Shown here one piece after another: positions 4,125 through 59,648 of a stretch of DNA of 64,000 bases. This DNA comes from Dehalococcoidia bacterium (GTDB taxonomy: Bacteria > Chloroflexota > Dehalococcoidia > UBA6926): NCBI GenBank assembly GCA_963666115.2, contig CAXXET010000002.1, positions 1 to 64,000 of the forward strand, given 5' to 3'. The position numbers and the translations under genes were made by a program. The notes under the pieces were generated by a model. That model was not told the DNA's origin. It saw only the letters and a list, made by a program, of their open reading frames with translations, and did no database searches. Every line of letters starts with the position of its first letter. Position 1 is the stretch's first letter.

Positions 4125-4514
4125 ATGACAAGCGCCACACAAAATCCTATCGCTGACTACGTTCAGCAGGCGCGCGGTTTCCTGCAAAAGGCGTATGACT
4201 ACCTTGAGCAGGGCGATTTGCATCAGGCCTCTGAGAAGGGATGGGGCGCCGCCTCTCACATGGCCAAGGCCGTTGGCCTCGCCCGGAACTGGCCCTATGA
4301 CAACCACAGCGAATACCGCCGGCTGATGCGGCAGGCAACGGAGGCGACGGGCAACGACACGCTCCGATTTCTCCACGGGCGGGCAGAGCAGTTGCACATG
4401 AACTACTACGAGCGCGCCCAATTCCTGGACGCCGGCACAATCCGTCAAGACATAGACGGAATGCGTGAACTCCTTGCCATCATGGAACCCCTCCTGGGGG
4501 ACGCCCTAAAGTAA
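4125..4514 (+). CDS. PaREP1/HEPN-like family protein
   Basis: GDLHQASEKGWGAA and LHMNYYE motifs typical of PaREP1-like proteins. Confidence 0.7.
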   Translation: MTSATQNPIADYVQQARGFLQKAYDYLEQGDLHQASEKGWGAASHMAKAVGLARNWPYDNHSEYRRLMRQATEATGNDTLRFLHGRAEQLHMNYYERAQFLDAGTIRQDIDGMRELLAIMEPLLGDALK

Positions 4515-50833: not shown

Positions 50834-53800
50834 TTACGCGGATCCGCAGTAATCGCCGACAAAGCGGATGCCCATGGCCCACTCCCGGAACATATCGTTC
50901 GCTGGCGCGCAGAGCCCTTCGTTGTCGTTGAAGAGGAAGTCGCCCAGATTCGCCAGCCTGGTCAGGGTATGCGGCACCTCACCTTGGAGTTGATTCCTCG
51001 CGATGCTCAGGTATGTCAGCTTCGATAGCTCGCCCAATTCGGTTGGAACGTCCCCGTCCAGGTCATTGGAACGGAGATCCAGCGACTCTAGGTTTGAGAG
51101 ATTCGCCAGCTCGACTGGAATCCGTCCACTGAGCCTGTTCCCGCGGAGGGAGAGGTGCGTAAGGTTGTCCAGCGATCCTAGCCCAACTGGAATAGTGCCC
51201 TCCAGCACATTGCCTCCCAAGTCCAGCCGTTCCAGGCGGGAGAGTTCGCCGAGTTGAGTCGGAATTTCACCGCTCAGTCTGTTGCCGTAGAGGGACAGGA
51301 ACTTCAGGTTGGACAGTCTGGCTAGCTCAATCGGAATCTGTCCACCTAAATCATTGAATCGCAGGTTGACGTATTCAAGCTGAAGGAGATCGGCGAGTTG
51401 AACAGGAATCGCCCCGCTCAGCCTGTTTTCGTGAAGTCTCAAGGACACCAAGTTCGAGAGCCCGCCGACGCTGGAGGGTATCGGGCCGCTCAACTGATTA
51501 TTGTTGAGGCTCAGGTGAGTCAGGTTGGAGAGGCTGCCCAGTTCCGCCGGTATTCTGCCCGTCAACTCGTTCTGGCTCAAGTCTAGTTTCGCAAGACGTG
51601 CAAGTTTGCCGAGCGTCGCCGGAATCTCGCCCCCAAGAACATTCTCGCTCAAATCGAGATGCGCCAGGTGTGGCAGGTTGCCGAGCGTGCCCGGAATCAC
51701 CGCGCTTAGCCCGTTGCCACTGAGGTCGATCTCTTCAAGCCTGGCAAGTCTGCCAAGCTCGGCCGGTATTGGCCCCACCAAATCGGCATTCTTCGAAAGT
51801 TCCAGCGTCTCCAGCCAGGCAAGGTTGCCCAACTCAGCCGGCAGTGATCCCCTCAATCTGTTGCCGCTCAGGGCTAACGCAATGACTCGCCCCTCCGCAT
51901 CGGTAGTGACACCGTGCCACTCACTAAGCGGCGAATCACTCAGCCAATTCATGCTGTCAATCCAGTACCAGCCGGTGGTGGCGCCATAGAGAGCAATCAG
52001 CGCCGCCCTCTCCGGAGAATCCCCGTCAGCAATCGGCCCTCCAGTAGTCCAGCATGTGTCAGCGCTGCCATACTGTAAATTGCGAACCCATGCTTCGATC
52101 ACGCCATCCGGCGGTGCGCACAGGCCATGGTTGTCGGCCAGCGTAACCCGAATGATGGACTCCAGTTCGGTCAGGGCCTCCGGAATCTCCCCGGACAACC
52201 GGTTTCGTTCAAGATCGAGGTGTTCCAGCTCACTAAGCCTGCTCAACTGGCCTGGCACCGCCCCCCACAATCTGTTGTCGCTTATGTTCAGGTAGCGCAG
52301 TTCAGCAAGCTCGCCGAGCTGGGGCGGTATCTCCCCGCTCAACTCATTTCCCCCCAGCCAGAGCGCTTCCAGATCATCGAGATCGGCAAGCTGAACGGGA
52401 ATCGTCCCTTCCAGTAGATTCCAACTGAGCGACAGTTCCTTCAGTGCAGTCAGGCCGCCGACTTCAGGTGGTATGCCCCCGCTCAACAGATTCCTCTCCA
52501 GGTGCAGCCCCTCCAGGTTGGCGAGATTGCCAAGTTGAGAAGGTATGCTTCCGCGCAGGTCATTGCCGACGAGGTCCATTTCCGTCAATTGGGAAAGTCT
52601 TCCCAGTTCTGGCGGTACCTCTCCTCCCAGGCGCGTATACGAGAGAAGCAGGCGTTTCAATTGCGAAAGGCTGCCCAGTTCCGGCGGTATCTCCCCATCC
52701 AACTTGGTAGACGAAAGGTCGAGTACTTCCAAACCCTCGAGAGCGCCAATCTCTGGGGGAATGGGTCCGCTCAACTCGGTGCCGGCCAGGTCTAATTCCC
52801 TTAGGTTGGAGAGTTCACCCAATTCCGGAGGGATTTGTCCGGTTAACTCATTGCCCCGAAGGTACAATTTCGAAAGCACTGACAGCCCCGCCAGTTCAGG
52901 GGGAATCTCCCCAGTCAACTCATTCCGCGAGAGGTCCAGCCCGATGACGCGCCCAGTAGCGTCCGTCGTAACACCGTGCCAGTACTCCAACGGATAACCA
53001 AGGAACCAGTTTCGGCTGCTATCCCAACCCGCGCCGTCGGCGGCGTCATAGAGCGCAATCAGCGCTTCTCTATCCGTGGCAGCCTCAGGCGAATACAGGC
53101 TTGGTGAAACGGACTGAACAGGCGTCCATCCCGCTGCATAGTCCTCTCTAATCTCCATTGCGTAGATGCTCACCTGTTGTACTGGCATAAGCATCTTTGT
53201 GCCCTCGGGAAGCCACGGCATGGCGACCTCCTTCATGACGCTTGGCTTCTCAACTGAATAAAGGAGTTTTGTGCCGTCGGGAGACCATGCGGGGACACCC
53301 TCATCAAACTTGGTGGTCGTGACGCGTAGAAGCTTATTTCCATCGACTTCACCCACGTAGACATCGTAGTTATCATCACGCATGGACATAAACGCGATGC
53401 GCTCGCCATCCGGCGACCACGCGGGGACGGCGCCCCGCCCATACTCCTCGGCGGTCCCGTATGGCACAGACGTCGGTTCGCTCCCGTCGATGCCAATCAA
53501 CTCGATATCCCCCGCAGGCGAGTGGCGGGCGATTCTGGTGCCGTCAGGAGACCATGCGGGAGGCCCAGAGGATCCGTCAACGCGCCGCCAGGCTTCTGGA
53601 TTGAGGCCCGTCAAGACCGTGAGCTCACCTCTATCCACGTCAAGAACACTGATGCCCTCAATTCCGGCGGAGGACATGAAGGCCAACCGTCGCCCATCAG
53701 GCGACCACACCGGGGAGCTCTCTCTACGTTGGCCGTCGATAAGTCGCCTCAGATTGGAGCCGTCGGCGTTCACCACGTATGTTCCCCAGCTTTGGGAGCC

Positions 53801-54451
53801 GTCGCCATAATCCTCAGGATCAGCGGTGATGAATGCAATCCGCGTGCCGTCTGGAGACCACTGGAGCGCCGCTATCCACTCTCTGGCCGAAGTCAAACGC
53901 CGCAAATTCGTTCCGTTCGCATCTATCATGTAGATTGCAGTGCCTTCGCCGCCATAGACACTGAAAGTAAAGGCAATTCGCTCCCCATCCGGAGACCATG
54001 TGGGAGTCCCGGAAGTGGTCGCCCAGGGATCGAGAGTACCGTAGGGCACAACCGCCCTGGGGTTGCTTCCATCGGCGTCCATCACATACAGCCCAACATC
54101 CTCCTCAGCGCCCCTGTAGGAAACAAAAGCGATCTGTGAACCGTCCGGCGACCACACCGGATCCCTGCCGTCATCAGTCAAGAGTCTCGTACGGACAAAT
54201 AGCTCAGCCGATGGTATTGGTGTGGGCGTAGGCGCGGGCACAGGTGTGGCTGTAGGCTGTTGCGTTGCCGTTGGCCGCGCCGTCGGCTGGGGAACACTCG
54301 TCGGGGTTGCGGTAGAGCGCAGGGTTATCGTCGGCGTAAACGCCGGTTCCCGCGCCGTCGGTGTCACGGCGCCGCTGGTCTCCCCGTCATCACAAGCGGC
54401 CAGCATGAAAACGACGCCCAGCGCCAACAGGCCCAGGATGATGATTCTCAT
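50834..54451 (-). CDS. Lipoprotein with TolB/PD40 propeller and two plant-type leucine-rich-repeat cassettes
   Basis: LAAC lipobox, P/T linker, six WSPDG repeats, two ALIALY..W..WHGVTTD..GRV caps, 24-aa LxxLxLxxNxLsGxIP repeats. Confidence 0.92.
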   Translation of the reverse strand: MRIIILGLLALGVVFMLAACDDGETSGAVTPTAREPAFTPTITLRSTATPTSVPQPTARPTATQQPTATPVPAPTPTPIPSAELFVRTRLLTDDGRDPVWSPDGSQIAFVSYRGAEEDVGLYVMDADGSNPRAVVPYGTLDPWATTSGTPTWSPDGERIAFTFSVYGGEGTAIYMIDANGTNLRRLTSAREWIAALQWSPDGTRIAFITADPEDYGDGSQSWGTYVVNADGSNLRRLIDGQRRESSPVWSPDGRRLAFMSSAGIEGISVLDVDRGELTVLTGLNPEAWRRVDGSSGPPAWSPDGTRIARHSPAGDIELIGIDGSEPTSVPYGTAEEYGRGAVPAWSPDGERIAFMSMRDDNYDVYVGEVDGNKLLRVTTTKFDEGVPAWSPDGTKLLYSVEKPSVMKEVAMPWLPEGTKMLMPVQQVSIYAMEIREDYAAGWTPVQSVSPSLYSPEAATDREALIALYDAADGAGWDSSRNWFLGYPLEYWHGVTTDATGRVIGLDLSRNELTGEIPPELAGLSVLSKLYLRGNELTGQIPPELGELSNLRELDLAGTELSGPIPPEIGALEGLEVLDLSSTKLDGEIPPELGSLSQLKRLLLSYTRLGGEVPPELGRLSQLTEMDLVGNDLRGSIPSQLGNLANLEGLHLERNLLSGGIPPEVGGLTALKELSLSWNLLEGTIPVQLADLDDLEALWLGGNELSGEIPPQLGELAELRYLNISDNRLWGAVPGQLSRLSELEHLDLERNRLSGEIPEALTELESIIRVTLADNHGLCAPPDGVIEAWVRNLQYGSADTCWTTGGPIADGDSPERAALIALYGATTGWYWIDSMNWLSDSPLSEWHGVTTDAEGRVIALALSGNRLRGSLPAELGNLAWLETLELSKNADLVGPIPAELGRLARLEEIDLSGNGLSAVIPGTLGNLPHLAHLDLSENVLGGEIPATLGKLARLAKLDLSQNELTGRIPAELGSLSNLTHLSLNNNQLSGPIPSSVGGLSNLVSLRLHENRLSGAIPVQLADLLQLEYVNLRFNDLGGQIPIELARLSNLKFLSLYGNRLSGEIPTQLGELSRLERLDLGGNVLEGTIPVGLGSLDNLTHLSLRGNRLSGRIPVELANLSNLESLDLRSNDLDGDVPTELGELSKLTYLSIARNQLQGEVPHTLTRLANLGDFLFNDNEGLCAPANDMFREWAMGIRFVGDYCGSA

Positions 54452-54786
54452 CATTCACCCCCGCCCCGCAGCGCCCCATCCAATTCCCGCAAATACTGAA
54501 AGGTAAATATCCCCGTCTCGTGCGCGTCCGACCAGAGGAACTGTACCGCGTAGCGCCCCACCTGCATCCAGTCCAGCGCGATCACGTCCTCCGGCACGTC
54601 CGACTCAAACACCACGCGCTGGTTCGTCCCCTCCAGCACGCACATCGCGCACGGGCAGTTGCCGCGCAGGAACCGGTACGGGTAGTGGCTCCCGTGACCG
54701 TCCTCCCACACCGCGTGGATGCCGTCCGGCTCCAGCCGCAAAATCGTGATCCCCGGCACGCGCTCCGGATTCTGCCTCATCGTCAT
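54451..54786 (-). CDS. DUF971 / gamma-butyrobetaine hydroxylase N-terminal-like protein
   Basis: WEDGH...LRGNCPCAMC...VGRYAVQF.WSDAHETGIF. Confidence 0.85.
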   Translation of the reverse strand: MTMRQNPERVPGITILRLEPDGIHAVWEDGHGSHYPYRFLRGNCPCAMCVLEGTNQRVVFESDVPEDVIALDWMQVGRYAVQFLWSDAHETGIFTFQYLRELDGALRGGGE

Positions 54787-56457: not shown

Positions 56458-57951
56458 CTATCCCAGCGCAGGCGCCAACGTCGGCGCCCTCCGATGCTTC
56501 GTCCCCTGCTCAAACGCATATGCGTAGGTGAGAAGCGCCGCCTCCGTCCACGGTGTTGAGAGCATTTCTAGGCCAACCGGATGACCGTCCACCGTATACC
56601 CCGCCGGAACGGTGGTCGCCGGATACCCGCTCCATGCCGAGAGATGACAGTTGCTCCCCTCTTGGCGCCGGCCGATCGGCGCGGGCGGCAAACTCAGCGT
56701 CGGATACACCAGCGCGTCCAGGCTGTGCTCCGCCATCGCAGACTGAACCGCCTCCCGTGTGTAGTCAGTACTCTCGGAGAGCGCCTTGCGGGACTCCGGC
56801 GAGTTCGTCCCTCCCGTCGCCGTGTACGGCAAGATGAGCGGCGCGCCCGTGCCCATGTCCCGCAGCTCCTCGTACGTCACCGGGGCGAGGTCGCCCAGGC
56901 CCTTAAGGTAGGCATCGAGCGCGTCGCCGTTCTCATAGTTCCACCGCCCCCACGTCGTGCTCCCGTGCGCCAGGATAGTGTCCGCATGAAGAATCTCGAC
57001 AGGGTCGATAACCGTCGCGCCAAGGCGGCTCAGGTCCGCTATCGCGGCATTCATCACTGACGTCACCTTATCGGCCTTCGCTCCCGTTCCGAAGAATGAC
57101 CGAATGACGCCCAGCCGCGCGCCTTGAAGCCCCGCCGAACTCAGCCCCTCCGTATAAGACGCAGGCACATGCCCCTCCGCGTCGGCAGTGGCCGGGTCCC
57201 TGTGATCAGGCCCCGCGATCACCCCAAGCACAATCGCGGCATCCCGAACGGTGCGCGTCATCGGCCCCACTGTGTCGGACGTTGGCGCGTCGGGCATGAT
57301 CCCCGCGTTGCTGTTCAGCCCGTATGTTGGCCGCAGACCGACAAGTGACCCATACGCCGATGGGTTCCTGATGGAGCCTCAAGTATCCGTGCCGATGCCC
57401 GCCACGCCGAAGTTGGCGGCGATGCTCACGCCCGTGCCGGCGCTCGATCCCGATGGATTCACGCTCGTGTCGTACGCATTGCGCGTCTGCCCGCCCAGCC
57501 CGCTCGCCCCGTTGATCCCACGCGCCATCTCATCGAGGTTCGACTTCGCCAGGATGATTGCGCCCGCGTCACGCATCCGCGCAACGATCGTCGCGTCATC
57601 CAGCGTCATCATCCCGTTCAGCGCCAGGTTCCCGCCCGTCGTCGGCATCCGGTCCGCCGTGTGCATCAGGTCCTTGATGATGACGGGAATGCCATGCAGC
57701 GCCCCCCACTCGTCGCGGGGCAGATTCCTGGCGTCTATCTCCTCCGCCAGCCTCAGCGCATCCGGGTTGATCGAAATGATTGAATTGAAAGCAGGCCCGG
57801 ACTTGTCATACGCGCTGATCCGCAAAATATACGACTTCACCAGCTCCCGGCACGTAATCTCCCCCGACTCCAAAGCGTCATGAATACCCGCAATCGTGGC
57901 CTCCACGACATCAAACCCGCCGCCTGCACCCTGCCGCGCATCACCACTCAC
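56458..57951 (-). CDS. Amidase-signature family enzyme with in-frame TGA at 57379-57381 (candidate Sec, or nonsense)
   Basis: LHGIPVIIKD, GAIILAKSNL, GSSAG, GTDT*GSIRNP, GLRPTYG, DTVGPMTRTVRD, YPATTVPAG all in one frame across the TGA. Confidence 0.85.
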
Positions 57952-57968: not shown

Positions 57969-59648
57969 TTAATGCGTAACCGCCCCCCGTGATGCCGAAG
58001 ACACCAGCCGCGCGTATTTCGCCAGCGCGCCCCGCGAATGTTTCGGCGCAGGCTGCGTCCACCGCGCCCGCCGCTCAGCCATCTCAACCTCTGAGAGTTC
58101 AACGTTGATCTCGCGGCTCTCCACGTCAAGCACGATGATATCGCCATCCTCCAGCAGACCCATCGGCCCGCCCGTCATAGCCTCCGGCGCGACGTGCCCG
58201 ACGGCCAACCCATGCGTCCCGCCCGAGAACCGCCCGTCCGTGAGCAGCGCAACCTTCTCGCCGAGCCCCTGCCCTGTGATCGCCGCCGTCACCGCGAGCA
58301 TCTCGCGCATTCCCGGCCCGCCCTGCGGCCCCTCGTAGCGAATCACGACGACGTCGCCCTCGACGATCTCGCGAGCCTGCACCGCGTCGAATGCGTCTTC
58401 CTCGCGGTCGAAGACCCGCGCCGGCCCGCGGTGATGACGAATCGGCGTCCCTGCAATTTTGATCACCGCGCCCTCCGGCGCGAGATTCCCCTTGAGAATG
58501 GCAATGCCGCCCGTCGGCCCAAGCGCGTCGGAAAAGTCATGCACCACTCCCGCGCCGCCGCCGGGCCGCACCGGCGCCAGCGTCTCCGTAAGAGTCTTGC
58601 CCGTCACCGTCATGCAGTCGCCGTGCAGGTAGCCCGCGTCAAGCAGCCGCTTCAGCACCACCGGCACCCCGCCCGCCTTGTCCAGGTCGGACATCACGTA
58701 CCGCCCGCCCGGCTTCATATCCGTGATATACGGCGTCTTGTCGCTGATCTCACCGAAGTCCTCGATATCAAGCTCCACTCCCGCCTCGTGCGCGATGGCC
58801 AGCAGATGCAGCACGACGTTCGTCGACCCCCCCATCGCCATCGCCGCTGTGATCCCGTTCTCCAGCGACTCCCGTGTGATGATGTCGCGCGGGCGGCGGT
58901 TCTCGCGCACCATGTCCATCACCTGCTCCCCGCTCCGGAACGCCAGTTGCTCGCGCCGCGCGTCAACCGCCGGCACGGACGCCGAACCGGGCAAGCACAC
59001 GCCCATCGCCTCAAAGACGGACGCCATCGTGTTGGCCGTGAACAGCCCGCCGCACGAGCCCTCGCCGGGGCAGGCGCACTCCTCGAGCGCCGTCACCGCC
59101 TCTAGTGGAATCGTACCCGCCGCGTACGCGCCAACGGCCTCAAAGACATCGACAATCGTTACGTCCCTGCCCTCGTAGCTGCCGGGCAGAATCGTGCCCC
59201 CGTAGAGGAAGATCGAAGGGATATTCGTCCGCGCCATCGCCATCACCGATCCCGGCAGCGACTTGTCGCACCCCGCCAGCGTCACCATCCCGTCCAGCGC
59301 CTCCGCCATCGCCACCAACTCAAAAGAATCCGCGATGACGTCGCGGCTCACCAGCGACGCCTTCATGCCCTCGTGCCCCATGGCGATGGCGTCTGAGACG
59401 GCGATGGCCGTGAACTCGATGGGAGTTCCGCCCGCCGCGCGGATGCCCTGCTTGACGTGGTCGGCCAGCCTTCCAAGGTTCAGGTTGCACGGCGTCACCT
59501 CATTGGCCGTGCTCGCCACGCCGATGAGCGGCTTCCGCAAATCCTCCGGCGTGAACCCCATCGCGTAGAACATGGAGCGGTGCGGCGCGCGCTCCACCCC
59601 GTCCGTCACCTGCCACGAATTCGGCTTCGGCGCCGCCCCCTGCGTCAT
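57969..59648 (-). CDS. ilvD: Dihydroxy-acid dehydratase
   Basis: [57 protein letters not shown]. Confidence 0.97.

Follow-up and report, generated by a model that had tools for sequence, protein, structure and literature searches.

A conserved in-frame UGA followed by a hairpin points to a selenocysteine-containing amidase-signature enzyme in one genus of Dehalococcoidia

The stretch of DNA analyzed here, which we call the window, comprises 64,000 nucleotides from the genome of a Dehalococcoidia bacterium (assembly GCA_963666115.2, contig CAXXET010000002.1, positions 1 to 64,000), and its minus strand carries a gene of the amidase-signature family whose reading frame is interrupted once, by a TGA. 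We read this codon as a probable selenocysteine (Sec) codon. The parts of the gene on which the argument depends are the following.

56458..57951, minus strand: coding sequence of the predicted Sec-containing amidase-signature protein, 497 codons, with a GTG start at 57951 and a TAG stop at 56460-56458
57379..57381, minus strand: in-frame TGA, codon 191, the probable Sec codon; the same codon in 18 of 18 orthologs of the genus
57373..57375, minus strand: codon for Ser193, predicted to act as nucleophile in the Ser-cisSer-Lys triad; in an alignment of 98 sequences this residue does not vary
57442..57447, minus strand: codons for Ser169 and Ser170 (GSS motif; cis-Ser); G168, S169 and S170 invariant in the 98-sequence alignment
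57673..57675, minus strand: codon for Lys93, the triad lysine; invariant in the 98-sequence alignment
56647..56649, minus strand: codon for Cys435, the proposed partner of Sec191; Cys in 20 of 20 Sec-type and close Cys-type loci

A first-pass annotation of this DNA, made from its letters alone, had read the region as one 497-codon frame from GTG 57951 with a single TGA at codon 191, and both the frame itself and its whole-length match to a protein family bore this out. The TGA at 57381-57379, in the context GIGTDT*GSIRNP and two residues before Ser193, was the sole internal stop, and the Pfam Amidase family (PF01425) covered residues 36-474 of the read-through frame (7e-82; 276 bits against a cut-off of 27), matching profile positions 1-445 of 445. 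The same annotation had described the Lys and Ser-Ser triad motifs as intact, which also held: K93, S169/S170 and S193 were present, and all were invariant across the 98 aligned homologs. In the amidase signature these residues correspond to the Lys, the cis-Ser, and the nucleophile, respectively, and Ser193 aligns to the GS of the peptide amidase motif GTETDGSI. In the amidase-signature family, the four residues ending at the nucleophile Ser provide the backbone amides of the oxyanion hole; as it is this four-residue stretch that forms the oxyanion hole, Sec191 would sit in the catalytic loop and not at a remote position.

The predicted fold agreed with the family assignment. An AlphaFold2 model built with Cys at position 191 reached a predicted local distance difference test score (pLDDT) of 95.7 and a predicted template modeling score (pTM) of 0.94, and in a fold search with this model the top 49 listed PDB matches were all amidase-signature enzymes, the best with a template modeling (TM) score of 0.87. 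The closest solved structures were the peptide amidase Pam (1m21/1m22) and an uncharacterized Bacillus anthracis amidase (5ewq); the structures of GatA, Tse8 and FAAH were more distant relatives than these two. Pam, from Stenotrophomonas maltophilia (1m21/1m22; engineered form 5ac3), was the closest of all (E 2e-84 over residues 13-491; TM 0.84-0.87), with about 37-38% identity, a similar length, and the same Lys, GSS, and GS motifs. It differs from the window protein at the two positions that concern us most, having Asp at the Sec191 site (GTET-D-GSI versus GTDT-U-GSI) and Ser at the Cys435 site, and for the window protein an activity on peptide amides is predicted by similarity only; 5ewq has Thr in the Sec191 column. 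We conclude from sequence and predicted fold that the locus encodes an amidase-signature (Ser-cisSer-Lys) hydrolase of the peptide-amidase-like branch, its activity being a prediction.

The TGA proved to be a constant feature of this gene within the genus. The ortholog search took in 41 genomes, namely the window's own genome and 40 relatives, and it recovered orthologs from 17 of the genus's 21 other species; these were 85-89% identical, and every one contained exactly one TGA. Counting the window, the TGA was present in 18 of the 22 genomes of the genus and lay at the same codon in all 18, and a codon alignment of these 18 orthologs contained no second stop and no frameshift. An in-frame stop could nevertheless mean that the gene is a pseudogene, created by a nonsense mutation or by a sequencing or assembly error. 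A single base change from GGA, or from TGC or TGT, would yield TGA, Gly is the commonest residue at this column among homologs (64/116), and public gene calls split the gene into pieces of 188-190 and 279 amino acids. Against this, the same TGA codon is kept in 18 species at a synonymous divergence (dS) of ~0.6 with the frame otherwise unbroken, and it recurs in many independent assemblies and in metagenome contigs, a recurrence that excludes a base error, the alternative that the first-pass annotation had itself raised. Selection on the codons beyond the TGA, described next, speaks against decay as well, and we regard this explanation as exceedingly improbable.

Over the 153 pairs of the 18 orthologs, the median ratio of nonsynonymous to synonymous substitution rates (dN/dS) was 0.071 for the codons before the TGA and 0.119 for those after it, with dS ~0.6. 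The 27 codons directly after the TGA, which include Ser193, had a ratio of nonsynonymous to synonymous polymorphism (pN/pS) of 0.038; 19 columns of this stretch varied in codon and one in residue, the strongest constraint that we measured. These values also bear on the idea that the gene produces two polypeptides, residues 1-190 and a restarted C-terminal piece, which together would form a split amidase. In the window an ATG at 57297 does open an apparent downstream open reading frame (ORF) of 279 amino acids, and the databases list the two halves as separate proteins. However, this ATG was found in only 2 of the 18 species, with Leu or Ile codons in its place elsewhere, and a split would leave Ser193 on neither piece, as it falls in the 27 intervening codons that are so tightly constrained. 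Purifying selection downstream of the TGA leads us to reject the pseudogene and the split-gene readings alike, and we give a split enzyme next to no credence.

We also scanned for the TGA motif at larger scale. A degenerate DNA pattern for G-[ST]-D-T-TGA-G-S-[IV]-R-x-P, with Gln after the Arg excluded, had matches in 18 of the 401 genomes sampled from the class, and these 18 all belong to 1 of 223 genera; the reversed pattern, run as a control, matched 0 of 401. A slightly wider pattern was run over a collection of 185,579 species genomes, and its counts are given among the 50 matching stretches listed. Twelve of these were the same gene, in Dehalococcoidia/Chloroflexota metagenome-assembled genomes (MAGs) at 84-88% identity; the pattern was present in more species of the genus than that (17), and the list is not exhaustive. 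A further 25 were GatA-like genes with 2-28 in-frame TGAs each, and the remaining 13 were non-amidase stretches, seven of which were the antisense strand of a conserved WEHAYYLKYQNRR motif. A scan of metagenomes returned 11 stretches: two of the same genus type, one distinct amidase (L097), one GatA-like gene with 7 TGAs, and 7 non-amidase sequences.

The GatA-like genes with many TGAs came mostly from Gracilibacteria, Absconditabacteria, SR1, and records labeled 'Peribacteria' (they include L042, L045, L050, L054, L059-L062, L064, L066-L068, L070-L073, L075-L077, L083, L084, L087 and L089) and offer a natural contrast to the single-TGA amidase. These are presumably lineages using genetic code 25, in which we take TGA to be read as Gly, and this would explain genes so rich in TGA. 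The recurrent non-amidase match, GSDT*GSMRAP, is the antisense of a highly conserved DVWEHAYYLKYQNRR coding motif that extends from archaea to planctomycetes (L041, L049, L053, L057, L069, L074, L086, L092, L098 and L101); we take the WEHAYYLKYQNRR/DVWEHAYYLKYQNRR coding motif to be that of Fe/Mn superoxide dismutase, and Rfam gave no match for the recurrent GSDT*GSMRAP loci.

L097 is a different amidase on a metagenome contig, 45% identical over 300 amino acids, with the motif GSDT-TGA-GSIRIP. Its sole in-frame TGA lies at the homologous codon (base 4189 of the reverse complement; the locus is on the minus strand), its N terminus resembles a signal peptide, and its frame runs off the contig end. 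The best hairpin downstream of this TGA has no G in its first two loop bases. Found on a single contig, L097 may be an independent Sec form or may equally be a nonsense change.

Public protein collections reflect the interruption, carrying the gene as two fragments of 188-190 and 279 amino acids. Among the best 120 of 192 short-protein matches, five clusters ended exactly at GTDT, all of them from the same genus. Two distant short amidase fragments at 44-45% identity, P0181 (227 amino acids) and P0190 (217 amino acids), end exactly at GTET, and each end could be that of a contig or a stop.

The region directly downstream of the TGA is able to form a hairpin of the kind expected of a bacterial selenocysteine insertion sequence (bSECIS).

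57344..57369, minus strand: bSECIS-like hairpin, with a 6-bp upper stem (57365-57360 paired with 57353-57348), the loop CGGCGU (57359-57354), and the outer pairs A57369-U57344 and G57368-C57345

This hairpin, ACCCAU-CGGCGU-AUGGGU at 57365-57348, was present just as the first-pass annotation had described it, with 13 nt from the UGA to the stem, 19 nt from the UGA to the loop, and a G as the second loop base. We compared the geometry by hand with the bSECISearch criteria, and it resembles that of the fdhF-type SECIS element: the hairpin is located within the coding region, 19 nt separate its loop from the UGA, and one of the first two loop bases is a G. When conservation was scored on the 18 orthologs, which reduce to 16 distinct sequences, the 6-bp upper stem was paired in 16 of 16, and in 4 of the 16 rows both partners of one pair had changed, from A-U to G-C, each at the third position of its codon (one for Pro, one for Tyr). 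The outer part of the structure differed from what had been proposed: the extension by CAGG/CUUG pairing exists in the window, but 7 of 16 rows cannot form its A-U pair, and what is kept instead is the alternative extension A57369-U57344 plus G57368-C57345, with or without G57367-C57347, in 99.3% of cells. Local folding returned the same hairpin in 18 of 18 Sec-type sequences (-9.1 to -12.1 kcal/mol), while two Cys-type loci folded differently. One of these, L039, can form another stem of 6-7 bp (UCCGAA...UUCGGA; L039:2047-2118) over the same codons at -7.5 kcal/mol, which may be due to chance.

Synonymous sites in the hairpin were also unusually still. Across the gene, 275 of the 313 columns with a conserved degenerate residue (88%) varied synonymously and 12% were invariant. 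In codons +5 to +11, which hold the stem and loop, five of the seven were invariant in the 18 species and the other two were the covarying pair; the codon preceding the TGA (ACT) was invariant as well. The question of conservation and covariation raised in the first-pass annotation was thus answered by a stem kept in all 18 orthologs, one compensatory pair, and frozen synonymous sites. In the other TGA-containing genes of the genome, presented below, the apical loops read from the folds begin 19-37 nt from the start of the UGA, and in most of them one of the first two bases is a G. By the same count the amidase loop starts at position 23, inside this range. With its 6-nt loop CGGCGU and 6-bp stem the amidase hairpin is shorter than most of theirs, and binding by SelB is putative.

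The stop-free relatives indicate which amino acid the TGA stands in for. Our homolog set consisted of 116 sequences of at least 400 amino acids out of the best 120 database matches, and column 191 held Cys in 44, Gly in 64, Ser in 4, and other residues in 4. The motif G[ST]DTCGSIR, which the first-pass annotation had attributed to this subgroup, is real, since the 44 Cys-bearing homologs carry it as G[ST]DTCGS[IV]R. Tabulating the codon in relatives, as that annotation had suggested, gave TGA in 17 other species and, in the nearest stop-free homologs, Cys and not Gly; the two nearest stop-free loci that we fetched have TGT (L039) and TGC (L040) at the site. Pairing of Sec with Cys across homologs, in an organism that uses Sec, is a standard signature of selenoproteins, Cys being the usual counterpart of Sec.

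A second cysteine accompanied the first. Column 435 was Cys in 44 of the 44 homologs with Cys191 and in none of the 72 others, which mostly have Arg there, and Cys435 was present in all 20 Sec-type and close Cys-type loci. The states at these columns are clustered on the tree, and there is one contrast on supported branches; the coupling is for this reason suggestive and unproven, and we say of Cys435 that its behavior is suggestive of a partner to residue 191.

In a FastTree phylogeny of 136 sequences, midpoint-rooted for drawing only, the 18 TGA forms made up one clade with support of 100, nested under this rooting among nine Cys-type sequences. The Cys-type homologs (P0002-P0008; L039 and L040) are 69-82% identical to the Sec form and have G[ST]DTCGSIR with Cys in both the 191 and the 435 column; they differ from it in having TGT or TGC and no conserved hairpin, and in bearing an N-terminal hydrophobic signal or anchor followed by a linker of 40-110 residues, both absent from the Sec form. 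In the nearest full-length ones, P0002-P0007 (69-80% identity), this N terminus consists of a basic and hydrophobic signal/anchor segment and then the linker. After its linker P0002 continues with AMSVDAQTAAGFDV, which is in essence the N terminus of the Sec forms (MSxDAQ..GFDV), and the Sec-type start corresponds to an internal Met of P0002. By a crude hydrophobic-window test, all 18 Sec forms were without the segment. One species, G021, holds both a Sec-type and a Cys-type copy, which makes the two types paralogs. These comparisons suggest that exported Cys-type enzymes gave rise to the Sec form, which would be cytoplasmic: an exported enzyme with the Cys/Cys pair would have been duplicated, would have lost its export signal and become cytoplasmic, and would have exchanged Cys191 for Sec.

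The genome (2.07 Mb in 9 contigs, 63% G+C) is equipped to make selenoproteins. The search for Sec machinery that the first-pass annotation had called for found all of it above the curated cut-offs, with selA (539 bits), selB (330 bits), selD (387 bits), and a tRNA-Sec (68 bits), which ARAGORN calls as tRNA-SeC with the anticodon TCA; selD of this genome itself carries one TGA. Besides the amidase, at least eight further genes have a single in-frame TGA.

GrdA (GRDA): single in-frame TGA, context CFVUTAAG
DsbA-like protein: single in-frame TGA, context UPWC
AhpC/TSA-like protein: single in-frame TGA, context WUPSC
GrdB-like protein (GRDB-like): single in-frame TGA
DUF3179 protein: single in-frame TGA
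SelD: single in-frame TGA
CoA-transferase family gene (L107), G000:C4:503946-504791, plus strand: one in-frame TGA, context STUPVT, followed by a strong hairpin
DUF427 gene (L108), G000:C4:324831-325286, minus strand: one in-frame TGA, context STUPFK, followed by a strong hairpin

Several of these eight belong to classical selenoprotein families. The names CoA-transferase and DUF427 did not occur, by term look-up, in the main text of a 2026 selenoprotein review. A genome-wide scan that scored in-frame TGAs by codon usage proved too unspecific, with 706 candidates; a stricter filter left 27 but lost the amidase and selD, and it served to pick examples, not to count selenoproteins.

We considered whether the UGA might be read through as another amino acid, be it Trp, Cys, Gly, or Arg, by a near-cognate or suppressor tRNA or under a changed genetic code. 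GatA homologs in code-25 lineages often have TGA for Gly, and half of the listed matches of the wider scan (25/50) were genes of that kind. Recoding across the genome was rejected, as TGA ends 653 of its 1489 open frames of at least 300 codons, and none of its paralogous amidases contains an internal TGA. The amidase has one TGA per gene where the code-25 genes have many, Cys takes the place of the TGA in its nearest homologs, the conserved hairpin is spaced from the UGA as a SECIS element would be, and the genome combines a full Sec machinery with other genes whose TGA is located where known Sec families expect it. Read-through with a different residue is therefore improbable in our view, if a little less so than a pseudogene or a split enzyme.

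The first-pass annotation had proposed a Sec amidase, and our results support the proposal: the machinery is encoded, the closest stop-free homologs have Cys, other copies with the TGA exist, the hairpin is conserved, and the TGA recurs. A TGA, a frame on both of its sides, and a hairpin that are all under selection in 18 species, together with Cys homologs and the Sec machinery, argue for a functional selenoprotein gene. We infer that selenium is incorporated, and we consider it very likely that this is an intact amidase gene whose UGA191 is read as Sec by way of SelB and tRNA-Sec. Decoding by SelB and tRNA-Sec would be guided by the hairpin in the coding sequence that starts 13 nt downstream, and Sec191, in the oxyanion-hole loop GTDT-U-G-S193, would replace the Cys of the Cys191/Cys435 pair that marks one subgroup of these enzymes.

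A number of observations pull in the other direction and temper our confidence. All 18 Sec-type species belong to one genus and are incompletely independent of each other, and the identity of the inserted residue is something that we infer. The compensatory change in the hairpin is confined to four related sequences and was maybe a single event, conservation does not extend to the CAGG/CUUG pairing, the 57-nt stretch folds no more stably than shuffled sequences do (z -0.39), and an Rfam scan of 57200-57500, with E up to 10, gave no match. On the tree, the coupling of columns 191 and 435 amounted to one independent contrast on supported branches and three on all branches. We know of no catalytic rationale for a Sec beside a serine nucleophile. 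Among the sequencing runs listed for the gene none was of RNA, and from the three DNA runs in two studies, with shares of at most 0.17, nothing was drawn.

What Sec191 does is a separate question, to which our answer is tentative. Three points, namely that the two residues co-occur perfectly, that residue 191 lies where it does, and that the enzyme seems to have changed compartment, led us to propose that Sec191 and Cys435 might pair as a selenenylsulfide or a selenol-thiol couple at the active-site mouth, where the pair would staple the catalytic loop or gate it by redox state; we hold this to be possible but on balance doubtful. The stricter version, in which a Sec191-Cys435 selenenylsulfide spans the active-site mouth and in the ancestral exported enzymes a disulfide held the oxyanion-hole loop, seems to us, if anything, slightly less likely still. 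Under that scheme, once the enzyme had moved into the reducing cytoplasm of an anaerobe, putting Sec in place of Cys191 would allow the cross-link to form there still, or would make it a fast redox switch of the amidase activity. The alternatives to a Sec191/Cys435 couple include a selenol that contacts the substrate and the binding of a soft metal or of a thiol substrate.

To our knowledge, Sec serves as the redox-active residue of an oxidoreductase in almost all selenoproteins known. Here it would lie in the loop of a serine amidase that forms the oxyanion hole, two residues away from the nucleophile, and would offer a natural test of selenium outside classical redox catalysis. The homologs with Cys or Gly at the site are ready comparators, and one of these is a paralog from the same genus. 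If true, a Sec191-Cys435 bond would be a use of Sec outside the oxidoreductases, namely a structural or regulatory chalcogen bond controlling the Ser-cisSer-Lys loop. The scope is narrow, in that the Sec form was found in one genus only. Where Sec occurs in a class I amidotransferase domain, it presumably replaces the nucleophile Cys. Two papers describe another predicted bacterial selenoprotein with an amide-hydrolyzing domain that is not a classical oxidoreductase (PMC12013277, PMC13188914). Its fold is unrelated to the amidase signature, and it differs from the present case, in which the nucleophile stays Ser and Sec lies two residues before it. Dehalococcoidia MAGs are reported to be among the ten most selenoprotein-rich bacteria (PMC13326102), which fits a lineage in which new Sec families arise.

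Neither family models nor the literature gave an earlier description. In NCBIfam release 20, the best 25 of 26 matches were generic amidase, GatA, indoleacetamide, AtzE, and allophanate hydrolase models, all below their cut-offs. The words 'amidase' and 'amidohydrolase' did not occur, in searches by term, in the main texts of selenoprotein surveys, reviews, and database papers (PMC13326102, PMC12013277, PMC13188914, PMC5029168, PMC9312934, bioRxiv 10.1101/2022.07.06.499078, PMC1794560 and PMC2398784), whose supplementary tables may list more, and 'PF01425' and 'COG0154' did not occur in the main text of one selenoprotein review. Full-text literature searches, judged by title and abstract, returned no paper on a Sec amidase and likewise none relevant to a disulfide in the amidase-signature family. 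The Sec amidase would then represent a new selenoprotein family that uses a known decoding mechanism, an earlier listing in supplementary tables or in BSepDB being possible. Its division into two fragments in public annotation leaves the enzyme invisible to family-based selenoprotein searches.

The genomic neighborhood was also conserved on the upstream side.

57969..59648, minus strand: ilvD/edd-family dehydratase gene, upstream of the amidase and ending 18 nt before its start; full-length Pfam ILVD_EDD_N and ILV_EDD_C

All 18 Sec-type loci had an ilvD/edd-family gene on the upstream side of the amidase, and ilvD was not found beside the two fetched Cys-type loci, L039 and L040. The first-pass annotation had reported a premature stop in the neighboring gene, and this we did not find: by Pfam, the ilvD/edd gene encodes a complete protein of 559 amino acids, and the other neighbors are complete too. 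On its other side the amidase is adjoined by a Uma2-family gene, a putative restriction endonuclease (PF05685; 55372-55980, plus strand). In some relatives a Uma2 gene is located between ilvD and the amidase (L026, L030, L031, L035 and L038 carry it, L035 twice), which suggests that it is mobile or has been inserted repeatedly. Further along, the window encodes on its minus strand (50834-54454) a protein of 1206 amino acids in which PD40/WD40-like beta-propeller repeats occur together with a long leucine-rich-repeat region, an architecture that is unusual for a 2-Mb Dehalococcoidia genome.

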